A DNA stretch of 64,000 nucleotides from Bacteroidota bacterium. GTDB lineage: Bacteria; Bacteroidota; Bacteroidia; 2-12-FULL-35-15. Each line of letters begins with the position of its first letter. The stretch's first letter is position 1. The notes under the pieces were generated by a model. It searched no databases. It was not told the DNA's origin and saw nothing but the letters and a program-made list of their open reading frames with translations. The translations under genes were made by a program, and so were the position numbers. The DNA is taken from positions 40,384-104,383 of the forward strand of contig JAHEYB010000001.1 of NCBI GenBank assembly GCA_023251805.1, given 5' to 3'. Positions 13,901 to 63,577 of this stretch are shown here, piece after piece.

Positions 13901-14446
13901 ATGGTTCCTTACAATCAAAAACGTCCTGCTTTAGAAATTATTCAGGAGAAAATATTTACACAAGAAACATTATTAAAACCATTAATCGTTTGGCGATTCA
14001 AAGGCGATAAAATTGTTTTTACAAACGGATGTTTTGATATTATTCATCGCGGACATGTTGACTATCTTGCGAAAGCAAGTGATTTAGGGAATCAATTAAT
14101 TGTTGGAATCAATAGCGATGCTTCTGTAAAACGTCAAGGTAAAAGCAGCTCTCGTCCTTTGCAAGATGAACAAACACGTGCTTTGATTTTGGCTTCTTTA
14201 CACTTTGTAAGTGGTGTAATTATTTTTGATGAAGACACTCCATTGGAATTAATCAAATTTGTTAATCCGGAAGTATTGGTGAAAGGTGCAGATTATGATG
14301 CGAATGAAACAAACATTACCAGCAAAAAATACATTGTAGGCTCTGATGTTGTGAAAGCAAATAAAGGGGATGTGAAAACGATTGAATTTTTGGAAGGGTT
14401 CTCTACGAGCGGAATCGAACAAAAGATAGTAGATAGTAAACAGTAG
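13901..14446 (+). CDS. RfaE domain-II-like D-glycero-beta-D-manno-heptose-1-phosphate adenylyltransferase (cytidylyltransferase family)
   Basis: 181 aa. FTNGCFDIIHRGHVDYL nucleotidyltransferase signature. The last codons and stop lie inside the left inverted repeat of the neighbouring cassette. Confidence 0.75.
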   Translation: MVPYNQKRPALEIIQEKIFTQETLLKPLIVWRFKGDKIVFTNGCFDIIHRGHVDYLAKASDLGNQLIVGINSDASVKRQGKSSSRPLQDEQTRALILASLHFVSGVIIFDEDTPLELIKFVNPEVLVKGADYDANETNITSKKYIVGSDVVKANKGDVKTIEFLEGFSTSGIEQKIVDSKQ

Positions 14447-14474
14447 ACAATTAAAAAAAGTAAACAATAAACAA
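14441..14474. repeat. Left arm of a 34-nt inverted repeat flanking the four-helix-bundle gene
   Basis: cagtagacaattaaaaaaagtaaacaataaacaa matches the reverse complement of 14895-14928 at 33/34 positions (compared by hand). Confidence 0.85.
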
Positions 14475-14497
14475 ATTAAAATAAAAGGGAAGAGAAT

Positions 14498-14887
14498 ATG
14501 GGAGAGCAAAATAATTCTTCATTTAAGTTTAAAGATTTAACAGTATATAAAAAAGCATTTGAGCTTTCAATGGATATTTTTCAAATAACAAAAAAGTTTC
14601 CAACGGATGAAAAGTATGGCTTGACAAGTCAAATCAGAAGATCTTCTCGATCGGTTTGCTCTTCAATTGGAGAAGGTTATAGAAAACGAAAATACGAAGC
14701 TCATTTTATTAGCAAAACTAGTGATGCAGATATGGAAAACAGTGAAACAAGCGTTTGGGTCGATTTTGCTTTTGAGTGCGGATATATAGATAAGTTAGAT
14801 CAAACAAATTTTAATAATAAAGCAGCAGAGATAGGGCGATTATTAAATCATATGATGGAAAACCCTCAAAAATATAATCGAAGCTAG
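14498..14887 (+). CDS. Four-helix-bundle protein (23S rRNA intervening-sequence protein / Avd-like family)
   Basis: 129 aa. F.DL.VYKKAFELSMDIF.ITKKFP..EKYGLTSQIRRSS.SV.S.I.EGY is the typical TIGR02436/PF05635 signature. Confidence 0.75.
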   Translation: MGEQNNSSFKFKDLTVYKKAFELSMDIFQITKKFPTDEKYGLTSQIRRSSRSVCSSIGEGYRKRKYEAHFISKTSDADMENSETSVWVDFAFECGYIDKLDQTNFNNKAAEIGRLLNHMMENPQKYNRS

Positions 14888-14894
14888 TAATGAA

Positions 14895-14928
14895 TTGTCT
14901 ATTGTTTACTTTTTTTAATTGTCTACTG
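14895..14928. repeat. Right arm of the 34-nt inverted repeat
   Basis: ttgtctattgtttactttttttaattgtctactg. It ends 6 nt before the radA ATG. Confidence 0.85.
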
Positions 14929-14933
14929 AATTA

Positions 14934-16307
14934 ATGGCTAAAACAAAAACATCTTTCTTCTGTCAAAACTGTGGAACGCAATCGGCAAAATGGATTGGAA
15001 AATGTCCTTCTTGTAATGAGTGGAATACTTATGTAGAAGAAGTTGTTTCAAAAGGAGAAGATGCAAAAACACCTGGTATTGCTAGTACAAGCACACAGCG
15101 TGCTTCCAAACCACAATTGGTTACGGAGATAAATTTAGAAGCGCATCCTCGCATCGAATTATACGATAAAGAACTTTCAAGAGTATTGGGTGGTGGATTG
15201 GTTCCAGGCTCATTAACTTTATTTGGTGGTGAACCAGGAATTGGAAAATCTACTTTGATGTTGCAAGTTGCTGTGAACATGAAGAACTTAAAAGTACTTT
15301 ATGTTTCAGGTGAAGAAAGTGAACAACAAATTCGTATGCGTGCCGAACGTATCGGAATGAACAATCCGAATTGCTACATCTTAACAGAAACATCCACGCA
15401 AAATATTTTTAAGCAAATTGAACAACTGGAACCGAATTTTGTCATCATCGATTCTATTCAAACATTACATTCTGCGCATATTGAATCATCACCAGGAAGT
15501 GTTTCGCAAATTCGTGAATGTACTGCAGAGTTGCTGCGTTATGCAAAAGAAAGCGGAACTCCTGTTTTTTTAATCGGACATATTACCAAAGACGGAAGTT
15601 TAGCGGGACCGAAAGTACTGGAACACATGGTAGACACTGTTCTACAATTTGAAGGAGATAGAAATCACGTGTATCGTTTGTTACGCACAGCAAAAAATCG
15701 TTTTGGTTCTACCAACGAATTAGGAATTTATGAAATGCAAGGAAGTGGTTTGCGCGAGGTAAGCAACCCATCCGAAATATTAATTACAGCTCGTGAAGAA
15801 TTAGTAAGTGGAGTTGCTATCGCAGCTACGATGGAAGGAATGCGTCCAATGTTGATTGAAACACAAGCGCTTGTAAGTACTGCTGCTTACGGAACACCAC
15901 AACGTTCATCAACAGGTTTTGATTTAAGAAGATTGTCGATGTTGTTAGCTGTTTTAGAAAAACGTTGCGGATTTAGATTAGGGATAAAAGATGTGTTCTT
16001 AAACATTGCCGGTGGAATAAAAGTGGAAGATCCAGGAATTGATTTAGCATTGGTGTGTGCAGTTCTTTCAAGTAATGAAGATATGCCCATCTCTCCGAAA
16101 GTTTGTTTTGCAGGCGAAGTTGGCTTGAGCGGTGAAATTCGCCCGGTGAATCGTATCGATCAACGTATTTCCGAAGCCGAAAAATTGGGCTTCGAACATA
16201 TCTTTATTTCCAAATACAATAAAAAAGGATTGGATTTAAAAAGCTACCACATCAAAATTACCATGGTTGGTAAGATAGAAGAGGTGTTCAGCTTGTTGTT
16301 TGGATAG
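14934..16307 (+). CDS. radA: DNA repair protein RadA
   Basis: N-terminal C4 zinc finger (CQNCG..CPSCNEW), Walker A GEPGIGKST, KNRFG motif, Lon-like C-terminal domain. ATG at 14934 is preferred over the TTG at 14919. Confidence 0.95.
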   Translation: MAKTKTSFFCQNCGTQSAKWIGKCPSCNEWNTYVEEVVSKGEDAKTPGIASTSTQRASKPQLVTEINLEAHPRIELYDKELSRVLGGGLVPGSLTLFGGEPGIGKSTLMLQVAVNMKNLKVLYVSGEESEQQIRMRAERIGMNNPNCYILTETSTQNIFKQIEQLEPNFVIIDSIQTLHSAHIESSPGSVSQIRECTAELLRYAKESGTPVFLIGHITKDGSLAGPKVLEHMVDTVLQFEGDRNHVYRLLRTAKNRFGSTNELGIYEMQGSGLREVSNPSEILITAREELVSGVAIAATMEGMRPMLIETQALVSTAAYGTPQRSSTGFDLRRLSMLLAVLEKRCGFRLGIKDVFLNIAGGIKVEDPGIDLALVCAVLSSNEDMPISPKVCFAGEVGLSGEIRPVNRIDQRISEAEKLGFEHIFISKYNKKGLDLKSYHIKITMVGKIEEVFSLLFG

Positions 16308-21511: not shown

Positions 21512-21964
21512 TTAAATAGAATCTTCGTAACCCCTGTCGTGTTTCAGGCCAGCACCCATTGCAGCTTCCACAGCTAATTCATCACAACGATTATTTTCAG
21601 CATTAGATGCATGTCCTTTTACCCAAACAAATTTTATTTTGTGTTTGCGGTAAATTTTTAAAAAGCGCATCCACAAATCCGGATTTTTTTTGTCTTTGAA
21701 ATTTTTCTTCTCCCAACCAAATACCCATTTCTGTTCTACAGAATCCACCACATATTTTGAATCGGAATAAATAGTTGCTTCAGTTCCTTCTTTTTTTAAG
21801 GACTCCAATGCAACAATTACACTCAACAATTCCATGCGATTGTTGGTAGTTAATTTAAATCCTTCCGAAATTTCTTTGCGATGAGTGCCTGCAATCATTA
21901 CCACACCAAATCCACCCGGACCAGGATTCCCACGAGAAGCACCATCTGTGTAAATTTTAATCAT
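21512..21964 (-). CDS. rnhA: Ribonuclease HI
   Basis: 150 aa from MIKIYTDGASRGNPGPGGFG, with ..NNRMEL.. and ..NNRCDELA.. motifs. The longer ORF-track start reads through the adjacent repeat. Confidence 0.9.
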   Translation of the reverse strand: MIKIYTDGASRGNPGPGGFGVVMIAGTHRKEISEGFKLTTNNRMELLSVIVALESLKKEGTEATIYSDSKYVVDSVEQKWVFGWEKKNFKDKKNPDLWMRFLKIYRKHKIKFVWVKGHASNAENNRCDELAVEAAMGAGLKHDRGYEDSI

Positions 21965-21974
21965 AGTTTTAAAA

Positions 21975-22064
21975 AGTAAACAATAGACAATAAAAAAAGT
22001 AAACAAAAAGTAGATGTGAATATTTTTATTTGTCTACTGTCTATTCCCTTTTTCTTGTCTACTC
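21975..22064. repeat. Cargo-less imperfect palindrome built from the same GTAAACAA/GTAGACAA words as the 14441/14895 inverted repeat
   Basis: agtaaacaatagacaataaaaaaagtaaacaaaaagtagat .. ttgtctactgtctattccctttttcttgtctac. The arms are about 14 nt apart, between rnhA and the MarC gene. Confidence 0.5.
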
Positions 22065-22067
22065 ATT

Positions 22068-22634
22068 TCAAATTCCCGCATGTGTTCTAAACAACTTCAC
22101 AGCAATTGCCAATAGGATTATACCAAATACTTTTCTCAAAATATTAATTCCACCTACACCGAGTATTTTTTCCAAATGGTGCGTATTTTTAAGGACGATA
22201 TAAACAAAAATTAAATTCACAACAATGGCAACCAAAATATTTTCGATGTAGTATTCTGCCCGTAAAGAAAGTAAGGTAGTGAGTGTTCCTGTTCCTGCAA
22301 TCAATGGAAATGCAATGGGAACAACTGAGGCAGTTGCTGCTGTTTCTTCTTTATAAAATTTCACACCCAAAATCATTTCCAATGCTAAAAAGAAAATGAT
22401 GAAAGAACCTGCAATTGCAAACGAGCTTACATCAATTCCAATAAGTTTTAGAATTTGTTCTCCAACAAACATAAACACAATCATAATCACTCCCGAAACG
22501 ATCGTGGCTTTCTCAGATTGTATTTTTCCTACTTTGCCTTGTAAGTCAAGTAAAACAGGCAAAGAACCAATGACATCAATCACAGCAAATAAAATCATGC
22601 TGAGTGTCGCTATTTGTTTAAAATCGAAATGCAT
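22068..22634 (-). CDS. MarC-family (UPF0056) integral membrane protein
   Basis: 188 aa, 6 TM segments, typical MarC family layout. Confidence 0.75.
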   Translation of the reverse strand: MHFDFKQIATLSMILFAVIDVIGSLPVLLDLQGKVGKIQSEKATIVSGVIMIVFMFVGEQILKLIGIDVSSFAIAGSFIIFFLALEMILGVKFYKEETAATASVVPIAFPLIAGTGTLTTLLSLRAEYYIENILVAIVVNLIFVYIVLKNTHHLEKILGVGGINILRKVFGIILLAIAVKLFRTHAGI

Positions 22635-38156: not shown

Positions 38157-41100
38157 ATGAAAAACAATTACAAATTAATGACACGATTCAGTGTTGCATT
38201 GATGTGCAGTATGATGGTGTTCGCAAATTGCATAAACGCGCAAGTTAGCACGTATACGTTTGCTCAAATGGCAGGTGTTTCTTCACCAATCTCCGGTGGA
38301 ACGGCTGTAGCAACAGCAACAGGATTCACAGGTGTTGCCGGGTTGGATGACAATGCTTACACAGGACAAGCAATTCCATTTACTTTTACTTTTAATGGAG
38401 TTCCTTATACTTCATTCTCGGTTACTACAAATGGTTTTATAACATTTGGAGCAACTGCACCAGCAGGAACTAATTATACTCCTATTTCAAATGTTGCAAC
38501 TTATACGGGTGCTGTTGCCGCTATTGGTCGCGATATTCGTGGAGTTTATGCCACAGGAGCAACCCGCACTTTAGGGTCTAATATTTTAACAGCAGTAGTA
38601 GATGTTGGTCAAGTTTTTCCCGGTGATTTAGTTAGTATGGTAGGTGTTCCAGTTGGAACAATAGTTACTGCTGTAGGCGCAGGAACAATTACAATGTCAG
38701 CTGCCGCAACCACTACTGGTACGTCAACAGTTACATTTGCTACCGGTCAAATCAGAACAGAAACCATAGGAGTTACTCCAAATCAAATCCATGTGATTCA
38801 ATTTACACGTTTCCAAGCATACAATACATTAAATACTTCTTACAATTTTCAAATACGTTTATATGAAACGTCAAATGTTGTTGAAGTAGTTTATGGTCCA
38901 TTTATTAGTGGAGCAGCAGGTGGAACGCCTCAGGTTGGATTGCGTGGCGCAACAAACGCTGACTTTAATAATAGGACTACAACAACAGATTGGTCGGCAA
39001 CAACAGCCGGAGCAATAAATACCGCAACAGAAACATTATCTGCAACAGTATTTCCAGCTTCAGGCCAAACCTATGTTTGGACACCTCCACCATTGGTTTA
39101 TGATATGGGGGTTTCTGCATTAGCCACTCCTGCAGCTATTGGTTGTTTTGGAGCAACAGAATCTGTTAGCGTAACATTAAGAAATTATGGAACAGGTTCA
39201 ATCGATATGTCTGTGAATCCCGTTTCCGTTTCTGGGGCTGTTACAGGTCCAAATCCTGCGGCATTTGGACCAATTGTAATTAACTCGGGAATCATAGCAG
39301 CAGGTGGAACACAAACAGTTGTCCTTTCTGCTTCTTATAATATGTCAGCTGCAGGTACATATGTTTTCAACTCTACGATGACGGTTGCAGGTGATGCTAC
39401 TTCAGGAAATGATGCGATGGCTGCTGTTAGCTTGGTTAAAACAAGTCCTTCAGTATTAGCTTCATCAGATGTTGCTTTTTGCGCTGGTGGATCAACAACA
39501 ATTACTGCAGTACCAAGTCCGAATACACCTCCAGTTACTGGAACCAATGCTACAACTTTTGCTATTCCAGATAATAATCCCGTTGGTGTAAATTCTGTGA
39601 TTAATTTGAACGGAGTTCTTGGAGCAAGTAGTGTAACGTCTGTTTCATTATCTATTACACACACATTTGATGCAGATTTGGACATTACTCTAATTGCACC
39701 AAACGGATCACAAATTGATTTATCTTCTGACAATGGCGCTGGTGGTGATAATTACACAAATACTGTTTTTGTGCCAACTGGATTTCCTTCTATTACAACA
39801 GGTGTTGCCCCAATGACTGGTTCATTCACTCCTGAACAAGCATTCTCAACTTTAACCGGTTCAGGAAATGGAAACTGGACATTAAAAGTTGTAGATGATT
39901 TGGGTGCTGACGTTGGAAGCATTATATCATGGTCAATTACAATTCCTTCAGTTTCAGGAAATGCAACATATGCTTGGAGCCCTGCATTGGGATTAAGTTC
40001 TACAACAATTGCAAATCCTGTAGCGACTCCTGCTGCAACAACGACATATACAGTTTTAGTTACAGATAATAGCGGATGTACTGCGACAGATAACGTTATG
40101 GTAACTGTAAATGCTTTACCAACTGCAAGCGCATCTTCTACTCCAGTCTTATGTAATGGCGGAACATCTTCTGTAACAATTGTTGCATCAGGCGGAACTC
40201 CTGCTTATACAGGCGAAGGAACATTTACTCAATCAGCCGGAACAACAGTTTATACTGTTACGGATGCAAACTCGTGCGCAGGTACAACATCAGTTGTTGT
40301 AACAGAACCAACTGCGGTTGCTGTAACTCCAACTTCAAGTGCAATTTTGTGTAACGGTGGAACATCAACAGTAACAATTTCTGCAACAGGCGGAACTCCG
40401 GGATATACAGGAACAGGCTCATTTACACAATCTGCAGGGACAACAATTTATACTGTTACTGATGCAAACTCTTGTACGGGAACAGCTTCAGTAGTGGTAA
40501 CTCAACCAACTGCAGTTGTTGTAACTCCAACTTCAAGTGCTATTTTATGTAATGGCGGAACCTCTTCTGTAACAATTGTTGCATCAGGCGGAACACCCAC
40601 TTACACTGGTGAAGGAACATTTACACAATCAGCTGGAACAACCGTTTATACTGTTACCGATGCAAATTCTTGTACCGGCACAGCTTCTGTTGTTGTAACA
40701 GAACCAACTTTATTAGTTGCTTCTAATTCTTCTACTGCTATTCTTTGTAATGGCGGCACAGCTACAGTTACTGTTTCCGCTACAGGTGGAACAACAGCGT
40801 ACACCGGAACAGGAACATTTACACAATCAGCCGGAATGACAACCTATACCGTAACGGATGCAAACGGATGTTCAACAACAACAAATGCAACTCTTACTGA
40901 ACCCACTGCAATTGTTTTGAGTTCTTCAGAAACAGGTGTATTGTGTAATGGTGGAACATCTTCTGTTACTATTGGTGCAACAGGTGGAACTCCTGCTTAT
41001 TCAGGAGTAGGTACTTTCCCTCAGTCAGCAGGAACAATTATGTATACTGTTACTGATGGAAATGCTTGTACAGCTACAATAAATGTAACTGTTGTTGAGC

Positions 41101-50590: not shown

Positions 50591-50644
50591 ATTCTTAAGT
50601 TCAAAGTTTTTTAGTTCAAAGTTCAAAGTTTAAAAAAGGGTTAA

Positions 50645-51067
50645 TTAACTTTTAAACTCTTTGTAAGTTATTGCATCAAGCTTCATTTGTTTAATCATAC
50701 TAACTAATCCATTGCTTCTTGTAGGAGAAAGGTGTTTTGTTAATCCTATTTTTTCTACAAAATCTAATTTTGAATTGATAATCTCATCTGGTGTATGATT
50801 GCTCAGCACGCGAACCATCAAGGCAACCATTCCTTTTGTAATAATTGCATCGCTATCAGCTGTATAAATCACTTTCCCGTCTTGCAATTCAGAGTTCATC
50901 CAAACCTGACTCTGGCAACCTTTGATGAGTTTATCTTCTGTTTTGTATTTCTCTTCAATTAAAGGAAGCGATTTCCCAAGGTCAATAAGGTATTCGTATT
51001 TACCCATCCAATCTTCAAACACTTCAAACTCCTCAATAATTTCGTTTTCTATCTCTTCTATATTCAT
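50645..51067 (-). CDS. sufE: Cysteine desulfuration protein SufE
   Basis: 140 aa from MNIEEIE... ..LIKGCQSQVW.. (conserved Cys), ..SNGL..M... Confidence 0.85.
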   Translation of the reverse strand: MNIEEIENEIIEEFEVFEDWMGKYEYLIDLGKSLPLIEEKYKTEDKLIKGCQSQVWMNSELQDGKVIYTADSDAIITKGMVALMVRVLSNHTPDEIINSKLDFVEKIGLTKHLSPTRSNGLVSMIKQMKLDAITYKEFKS

Positions 51068-51114
51068 TTTACGCACTTAAAAAACTTTGAACTAACTAAC
51101 TTTAAACTTTGAAC

Positions 51115-63510: not shown

Positions 63511-63577
63511 TTTTTCTCGCAGATTTCGCAGATTTCCGCAGATTTTTTTGAAGGCTTAATCTATTTGTTAGTAGGAT

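Follow-up and report, generated by a model that had tools for sequence, protein, structure and literature searches.

A four-helix-bundle gene between inverted heptamer arrays at the rfaE-radA junction of a Bacteroidota genome: a probable member of a class of single-gene cassettes

In a 64,000-nucleotide stretch of a Bacteroidota genome (the window; positions 40384 to 104383 of contig C4 in an assembly of 2.98 Mb, 35% G+C and 80% completeness), a gene for a 129-aa four-helix-bundle protein lies between inverted repeats in the gap between an rfaE-like gene and radA. This 488-bp unit most likely belongs to a class of cassettes that have no promoter and carry a single gene, either of PF05635 or of PF13366. 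Comparison of loci and genomes shows that the class lodges at the stop-to-start junctions of co-directional, often overlapping host genes, within inverted arrays of short tandem words, and that gene and arms are inherited, and transferred horizontally, as a unit. It also shows that two junctions of the window are found in the genus in empty, filled and arms-only states and that cassettes appear to decay to arms-only palindromes and one-armed arrays. The description of gene and arms as a cassette is, taken alone, highly probable. The full interpretation, an insertable cassette similar to the intervening sequences (IVSs) of 23S rRNA, with arms that act both as recognition words cognate to the protein and as an RNA stem, is given a probability of about 0.55. 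The first-pass annotation had proposed a small mobile cassette or a gene carried in the loop of a palindromic element. It named as contrary findings the gene at this site without the repeats, repeats that are ubiquitous and not linked to four-helix-bundle genes, and a lack of presence/absence polymorphism; its proposal is supported, and none of these was found.

The cassette and two junctions of the window

The two arms of the inverted repeat are 34 nt long (14441-14474 and 14895-14928), are complementary at 33 of 34 positions (97%), and are separated by 420 nt. With up to three mismatches allowed, the window contains two copies of the arm, both at the locus, and the expectation from 100 shuffles is 0. 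The features of the locus and of a second site with related words are as follows.

13901-14446, plus strand: rfaE domain II-like nucleotidyltransferase gene, the upstream host gene (PF01467, E 3.6e-17; TIGR02199, 168 bits)
14435-14481, plus strand: left arm, an RTARACA heptamer array in sense orientation (inverted-repeat core 14441-14474)
14482-14497, plus strand: purine-rich leader AAAAGGGAAGAGAAT, immediately 5' of the four-helix-bundle ATG
14498-14887, plus strand: cargo gene, 129-aa four-helix-bundle protein (PF05635/TIGR02436)
14893-14928, minus strand: right arm, the words of the left arm as reverse complement (core 14895-14928)
14934-16307, plus strand: radA, the downstream host gene (Pfam AAA_25, Zn ribbon, ChlI, Lon_C)
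21512-21964, minus strand: rnhA
21975-22064, no strand assigned: cargo-less palindrome of RTARACA-type words, between the marC-like gene and rnhA
22068-22634, minus strand: marC-like gene

The arms are composed of RTARACA heptamers (GTAAACA, GTAGACA, and ATAAACA) with runs of A in between. The final five codons and the TAG stop of the rfaE-like open reading frame (ORF) lie inside the left arm, and in every filled copy of this junction the rfaE stop codon is part of the first word. The AAGGGAA/AAGGAGA motif of the leader is retained across orthologous cassettes, and the motif TTGTCTACTGA at the end of the right arm is also found in the cassettes of three related genomes (G005, G083, and G027), a few bases 5' of the radA ATG. 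The first-pass annotation had correctly described the gene within its 33/34 repeats, the spacers of 23 nt and 7 nt, the last rfaE codons and stop supplied by the left arm (TAG at 14446), and the filling of the rfaE-radA gap by the 488-bp unit. The distance from the right arm to the radA ATG is 5 nt rather than the 6 nt given there, with the ATG at 14934 and the start MAKTKT common to relatives. The rfaE-radA interval has no separate promoter or terminator signal beyond chance in a scan that covers sigma-70-type sites only, no Bacteroidota TAnnTTTG motif was seen by eye, and positions 14300-15050 have no match to a known RNA family in Rfam. A defence-system reading was discarded, there being no PADLOC hit.

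The cargo protein is a full family member. It matches positions 1-105 of the 106 positions of PF05635 (E 8e-32; 110.1 bits, cut-off 33.8) and scores 97.7 bits with TIGR02436 (cut-off 24), and its only Pfam matches are PF05635 and bAvd. The ratio of nonsynonymous to synonymous substitution (dN/dS) is 0.03-0.07 in the two ortholog pairs with estimable dS, which indicates that the gene is maintained; dS is ~1 or saturated, and it is saturated between the source genome and most others. The closest solved structures, 2gsc and 2rld, are each deposited with five chains, which would fit a pentamer like bAvd, and it may be speculated that such a ring could bind several tandem words. The first-pass annotation had placed the protein in a family known from rRNA IVSs and as the Avd protein of diversity-generating retroelements (DGRs). 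Its IVS family membership (PF05635) stands, and its identity as Avd does not: the Avd models NF033474 (29.4 bits, cut-off 80) and PF22296 (30.8 bits, cut-off 40) remain below their cut-offs, and no RVT_1 reverse transcriptase match was found across the 80%-complete assembly. Together with the neighbours of the gene, the housekeeping genes rfaE-like and radA, this led to rejection of the DGR reading; template and variable repeats were not found at the locus.

The genus has 68 species genomes, all from uncultured Bacteroidota, and the state of the rfaE-radA junction varies among them. The junction is filled in the source genome, in G005 and G083, which have an orthologous gene (84% identity) and the same arm words, and in G027, where the gene is frameshifted; in all three relatives the gene stands between arms of the same word. 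Empty sites, for which the first-pass annotation had proposed a search, are found in G011, G008, G016, and two metagenome contigs, with the sequence AAAATAAAAAATGGCTAA, in which rfaE ends in ...KIKNG* and its TAA overlaps the radA start by 8 nt. Other species have rfaE-radA spacers of 33-62 nt, some with right-arm remnants of sister words (ATTGCCTACTGATTT-ATG in G014). Because the species nearest by rfaE identity (85-91%) are without the cassette, its distribution appears patchy and would require several losses or gains. The metagenome contig nearest to the source species has only 90% identity in rfaE. Unrelated inserts are present at this junction in G020, G028, and G065 (loci L012, L014, and L122) and also at L020 and L033; they include an opposite-strand gene of ~230 aa for a beta-barrel-like (outer-membrane-like) protein and a small opposite-strand lipoprotein-like gene. 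The junction is, as judged from such comparisons, a general insertion hot spot.

The second junction, marC-rnhA, carries the cargo-less palindrome. The first-pass annotation had described an imperfect palindrome with arms about 14 nt apart. Its existence and shared words are borne out, and its arms, of 21-22 nt and 76-81% complementarity, are spaced more loosely, at 18-25 nt. In G013, G015, G065, and G014, marC-rnhA is filled by genes of the same four-helix-bundle clade with TAGACA arms; in the source genome, G005, and G083, it holds arms only; G076 has a one-armed array there, and the words are degenerate in G062 and G003; and in G030, G086, G081, and G021, it is empty, with an ATGA stop/start overlap. 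Presence/absence polymorphism is therefore clear at both junctions. The right half of the palindrome matches the right arm of the G065 cassette at 39 of 44 aligned positions (score 58; shuffle maximum 37), and the palindrome is thereby identified as an arm pair of the cassette type that fills the same junction elsewhere. In the genomes examined, the gene is at one of the two junctions, which are ~7 kb apart, and never at both, and genomes with the gene at rfaE-radA have only arms at marC-rnhA. It would appear that the gene was either lost from one arm pair or copied between arm pairs of the same word. A tree of the closest four-helix-bundle clade does not resolve whether the clade divides by insertion site. 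The genes of the G013 and G015 marC-rnhA cassettes (L045 and L046) have no ATG at the usual position and probably start at a GTG inside the degenerate left-arm word CAGTGGACAAG.

Word families, proteins, and solo arrays

The inverted-array layout recurs at 11 loci in the source genome, seven with PF05635 and four with PF13366 genes. The assembly has 10 PF05635 matches, one of which is truncated by a contig end. A tabulation of the repeat-flanked genes, as the first-pass annotation had proposed, places seven of the nine assessable genes between inverted arms of 17-34 nt; of the remaining two, one has a repeat of only 12-13 nt and one has none. The words are 7-10 nt long and specific to the locus, with AAGTCAA, TGTTGAW, ATTTCAR, and GTTGTTAG among those of the PF05635 loci. 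The second cargo was found by an unbiased census of inverted repeats with loops of 250-800 nt: all four PF13366 (PDDEXK_3, GxxExxY nuclease) genes are enclosed by 22-39-nt arms, with CGCAGAT, TCATGAT, or TACGAAT as the word, and the two TACGAAT cassettes (contigs C8 and C74) share their arm words.

The protein has three sister clades in the genus, with 64-70% identity among them; their words are GTAGACA, GTAGGCA, and GTTGGCA, respectively, in every copy and in both arms. More distant relatives were subjected to a word-geometry test, which demands two or more AGTNNNC words in sense orientation upstream, together with two or more in antisense orientation downstream, and takes the reversed geometry as the control. 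Of 79 relatives with 58-84% identity from at least six phyla, 65 passed, compared with 4 of 79 in the control, so the repeats are linked to this subfamily of four-helix-bundle genes. The other eight PF05635 paralogs of the source genome have essentially no AGTNNNC words. The relatives outside the genus, with 58-73% identity, are from Ignavibacteriota, "Candidatus Scalindua" and "Candidatus Brocadia" (Planctomycetota), Cloacimonadota, Calditrichota, Chlorobiota, Thermodesulfobacteriota, and several Bacteroidota families. Proteins of different phyla are interspersed on the protein tree, a pattern that points to the horizontal spread of complete cassettes, and word classes cluster on this tree, with 34 changes against a mean of 52.3 in shuffled data, a value reached in 0 of 200 shuffles. 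These comparisons indicate that the word frame goes with the protein subfamily. Proteins of L184 and L208 ("Candidatus Brocadia"), L167 to L170 ("Candidatus Scalindua"), and L164 and L168 (Cloacimonadota) are 65-70% identical to the cargo protein of the window and have the same word frame in their arms. For the nuclease cargo, arms are present in 30 of 30 relatives of the gene at C4:38049, and the words track the clade, shifting as identity falls from CGCAGAT (at least 69%) through a mixed range to CGCAGAG, CGCAAAG, and CACAGAT. Such comparisons show the word family to follow the protein and not the host, with host and protein dissociated in both directions.

The same words are also dispersed without a gene. 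In the source genome, gene-less copies of the RTARACA-type word are located at window positions 21977-22095, at C4:150735-150804, and at C45:65716-65773, and the gene-less array clusters of other families number 24 for TACGAAT, 27 for ATTTCAR, 10 for AGTCAAA, and 7 for CGCAGAT. Across the genus, high numbers of solo arrays are confined to genomes with the gene cognate to the word: TAGACA arrays number 97 in G083, 81 in G005, 44 in G065, and 21 in G014, all of which hold the cognate gene, and at most 13, mostly 0 or 1, in 60 non-holder genomes. For CGCAGAT, the top three genomes by array count are holders, and the link is imperfect. Among 20 sampled arrays of G005, at least 15 are one-armed, in sense orientation, and at or a few bases from the stop of the upstream ORF; the sampled arrays often provide the TAG of that ORF, and different word families adjoin. 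One long spacer of this genome (L106, G005:C10:45521-46140) has at least five word families, namely, TAGACA, TAGGCA, TTGGCA, ATCATGA/ATCTGCG, and AATCTAAAA. Across families in the source genome, sense arrays lie at a median of 6 nt past a stop codon (19 of 24 are nearer the stop), and antisense arrays lie at a median of 13 nt ahead of a start codon (20 of 30 are nearer the start).

Several further loci of the source genome have similar arrays or repeats. Two related four-helix-bundle cassettes (C27:63232-63674 and 66927-67393), ~78% identical by eye and both with AAGTCAAAA words, occupy different nuo-operon junctions 3.7 kb apart, and one has an in-frame TAA. A GxxExxY nuclease cassette at C4:38013-38511, ~2 kb ahead of the window start, has a perfect 25-nt inverted repeat of CGCAGAT words, and a solo array of three words of this kind lies at window positions 63518-63543 (C4:103901-103926). 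At window positions 50597-51109 (C4:90980-91492), a normal sufE (PF02657, E 4.5e-47) is contained in a 27-nt inverted repeat (24/27) with AGTTCAA words; this word forms 7 arrays in the genome, with no cognate cassette in the 80%-complete assembly. The genes rplC and infA (C62:31192-31886 and C62:19112-19733) each lie between inverted AATTCTA-type arrays. At C5:6715-7536, a gene for a 256-aa protein lies within a 33-nt inverted repeat (32/33), whose words, ATCATGA/ATCTGCG, are those of the nuclease cassette on contig C2.

Proposed mechanism and competing explanations

The proposed explanation is that read-through of the rfaE-radA operon would transcribe the cassette, that the arms would pair in the transcript to form a long stem with the gene looped out, and that this stem may be cut by RNase III, by analogy with the IVSs of 23S rRNA. 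In RNA folding of positions 14425-14945, the minimum-free-energy structure (-109.7 kcal/mol, z = -4.3; 0 of 100 shuffles are equally low) and the centroid structure each have the arms paired, and the stem step is put forward tentatively. The words would also be recognition sites, in DNA or RNA, of the encoded protein, a step that is just as tentative. It is suggested by the conservation of word cores and the clade-specific words in two unrelated folds, by words that accompany the gene when it enters other genomes and bloom where the gene is present, and by one-armed arrays, which a stem does not explain. Word recognition would account for words that differ by clade, for the concerted change of all copies, and for array blooms throughout a genome. 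New copies could arise in a simple way, for example, if the arms recombine with existing arrays of their word. That PF05635 proteins, probably as pentamers, and GxxExxY nucleases are readers of their own tandem words that propagate themselves, in the manner of repetitive extragenic palindromic (REP) elements and their RAYT proteins, is a possibility that we consider doubtful.

A number of observations weigh against this explanation. No insertion enzyme and no recent movement were seen, and the comparison of filled and empty junctions gives no clear target-site duplication, although low-complexity ends could hide one of 2-3 nt. Mismatches between arms include 19 of the G-U and 15 of the A-C type, which is no excess and gives no sign of selection on an RNA helix. 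Three holders of the gene have few TAGACA arrays (6 outside coding sequence in the source genome, 3 in G015, and 1 in G013), two non-holders have 13 each, the genus-wide count for TTGGCA, an overly common pattern, is noisy, and genomes within a single genus do not count as independent samples. The AGTTCAA and CGCAGAG array families have no cassette in the 80%-complete assembly. Finally, the near-identical proteins of L184/L208, L202/L205, and L219/L228 have words that differ in their middle letters; a strict base-by-base protein-to-word code was rejected on these pairs.

An unlikely alternative is that the word arrays are primary, a repeat of the REP or heptamer kind spread or maintained by the host at stop/start junctions, and that the genes are passengers, placed by chance in the loops of palindromic arrays, whose proteins are unrelated to the words. 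Solo arrays far outnumber cassettes and obey the position rule of their own described above (medians of 6 nt after the stop and 13 nt before the start), several word families adjoin in one spacer, some array families are without a cassette, and sufE, rplC, and infA also lie between inverted arrays, all of which favours this view. Passenger genes should have host-specific words, yet the AGTNNNC frame is retained by relatives of 58-73% identity that belong to other phyla, and in one genome each of ten paralogs has a word of its own. The tracking of clade by word in two unrelated folds and the blooms of a word only where its cognate gene is present also speak against passenger genes.

Quite unlikely is an explanation in which the arms serve solely as an RNA stem, whether as an RNase III site or as an mRNA-stabilising or insulating hairpin, with words arising by replication slippage and a protein that acts elsewhere. 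The arms are inverted without exception and are paired in the predicted fold, and the homologous IVSs of 23S rRNA are cut in the stem by RNase III (PMC4990558). The TAGACA word cores in the non-coding arms, however, are not swapped for compensatory pairs but are conserved far beyond synonymous sites, while dS is saturated; spacers and word numbers vary. Because the words are conserved and not compensated and G-U pairs are not favoured over A-C among the mismatches, an RNA-only role of the arms is disfavoured. The arms of orthologous cassettes are also frequently unequal in word number and spacer length, most solo arrays of G005 are one-armed and unable to form a stem, and word identity tracks the protein clade across phyla. 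Least probable, to the point of being very remote, is an ordinary or chance feature around a solo gene, such as an AT-rich coincidence or bidirectional terminators, or a DGR Avd gene. The AT-rich genome and the weak similarity to Avd models fit this account, but a 33/34 repeat with 0 expected, no terminator-like site, the layout at 11 loci of the source genome and in 65 of 79 relatives, Avd models below their cut-offs, and no reverse transcriptase found in the assembly do not. The cassette with cognate arms is the explanation that we prefer.

Relation to known systems

The closest parallel is the ORF-bearing IVS of 23S rRNA. In Coxiella burnetii, the S23p IVS is an ORF-bearing stem with tandem heptamers that is cut by RNase III (Warrier et al. 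2016, PMC4990558), and the ORF-bearing IVSs of Coxiella burnetii and Leptospira have already been proposed to be selfish or mobile (PMC4990558). Both systems have a PF05635 protein, a unit of ~430-490 nt in which a long terminal inverted repeat (28 bp in Coxiella and 34 here) encloses the ORF as its loop, tandem heptamers in the arms (GACAGAT in Coxiella and RTARACA here), and no promoter of their own, riding instead on a host transcript. The present unit differs in that it lies between an rfaE-like gene and radA rather than in a 23S rRNA helix, in that its word family also occurs as solo arrays and arms-only palindromes, and in that its processing by RNase III is putative. It is most likely a cassette of the IVS type that lies outside rRNA and has cognate arrays dispersed in the genome.

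The solo arrays resemble the intergenic heptamer arrays described for TAACTGA in Beggiatoaceae, cyanobacteria, and Bacteroidetes (MacGregor 2015, PMC4679880) and for GGGAATC/GGGGAYT in Xanthomonas and Nostoc (Rehm et al. 2015, PMC4692102). In both cases, tandem 7-nt words in sets of 2-6 lie between co-directional ORFs, with orientation and position set by stop and start codons; certain words create stops in all three frames, and horizontal spread is suspected. The geometry in the source genome is that of GGGAATC in Xanthomonas (PMC4692102), and its arrays resemble the oriented TAACTGA arrays of Beggiatoaceae (PMC4679880). In contrast to the arrays here, in which every family of words is paired with a PF05635 or PF13366 gene that it flanks in inverted orientation, neither PMC4679880 nor PMC4692102 names a gene cassette, and MacGregor 2015 (PMC4679880) makes no mention of 23S, S23, or four-helix proteins.

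The REP/REPIN and RAYT systems are similar in that a single gene lies between inverted short repeats that are also dispersed intergenically and whose abundance is tied to the gene. The cargo here is not a Y1 HUH (IS200/IS605-like) transposase, however, and its repeats take the form of words arrayed in tandem and not of lone palindromes, with many gene/word pairs per genome. The Avd protein of DGRs belongs to the same four-helix-bundle superfamily, and the nearest structures have five chains; the sub-cut-off models, the housekeeping neighbours, and the lack of a reverse transcriptase and of template and variable repeats set the present gene apart. In comparison with insertion sequences and miniature inverted-repeat transposable elements, no transposase was identified for the cassette. 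A literature search yielded no published description of a class of gene-plus-array cassettes, with Warrier 2016, Rehm 2015, and MacGregor 2015 being nearest.

The locus and its relatives link two puzzles that are decades old: why some 23S rRNA genes have an ORF-bearing IVS, and what the heptamer arrays are that abound between the genes of many bacteria. The linking unit is a small gene with inverted arrays of its cognate word, found at operon junctions and crossing phyla with its words intact. For genome annotation, it is of consequence that these cassettes separate gene pairs that overlap and are coupled in translation, and that they alter the upstream gene at its C-terminus and stop codon. 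A widespread orphan protein family would also gain a directly testable function, the binding or cutting of its own word array. If the proteins are indeed readers of their words, the system would seed word arrays at stop/start junctions genome-wide and move between phyla, and the ORF-bearing 23S rRNA IVSs and the heptamer arrays (short tandemly repeated repetitive sequences, TAACTGA, and GGGAATC) would be one class of element.

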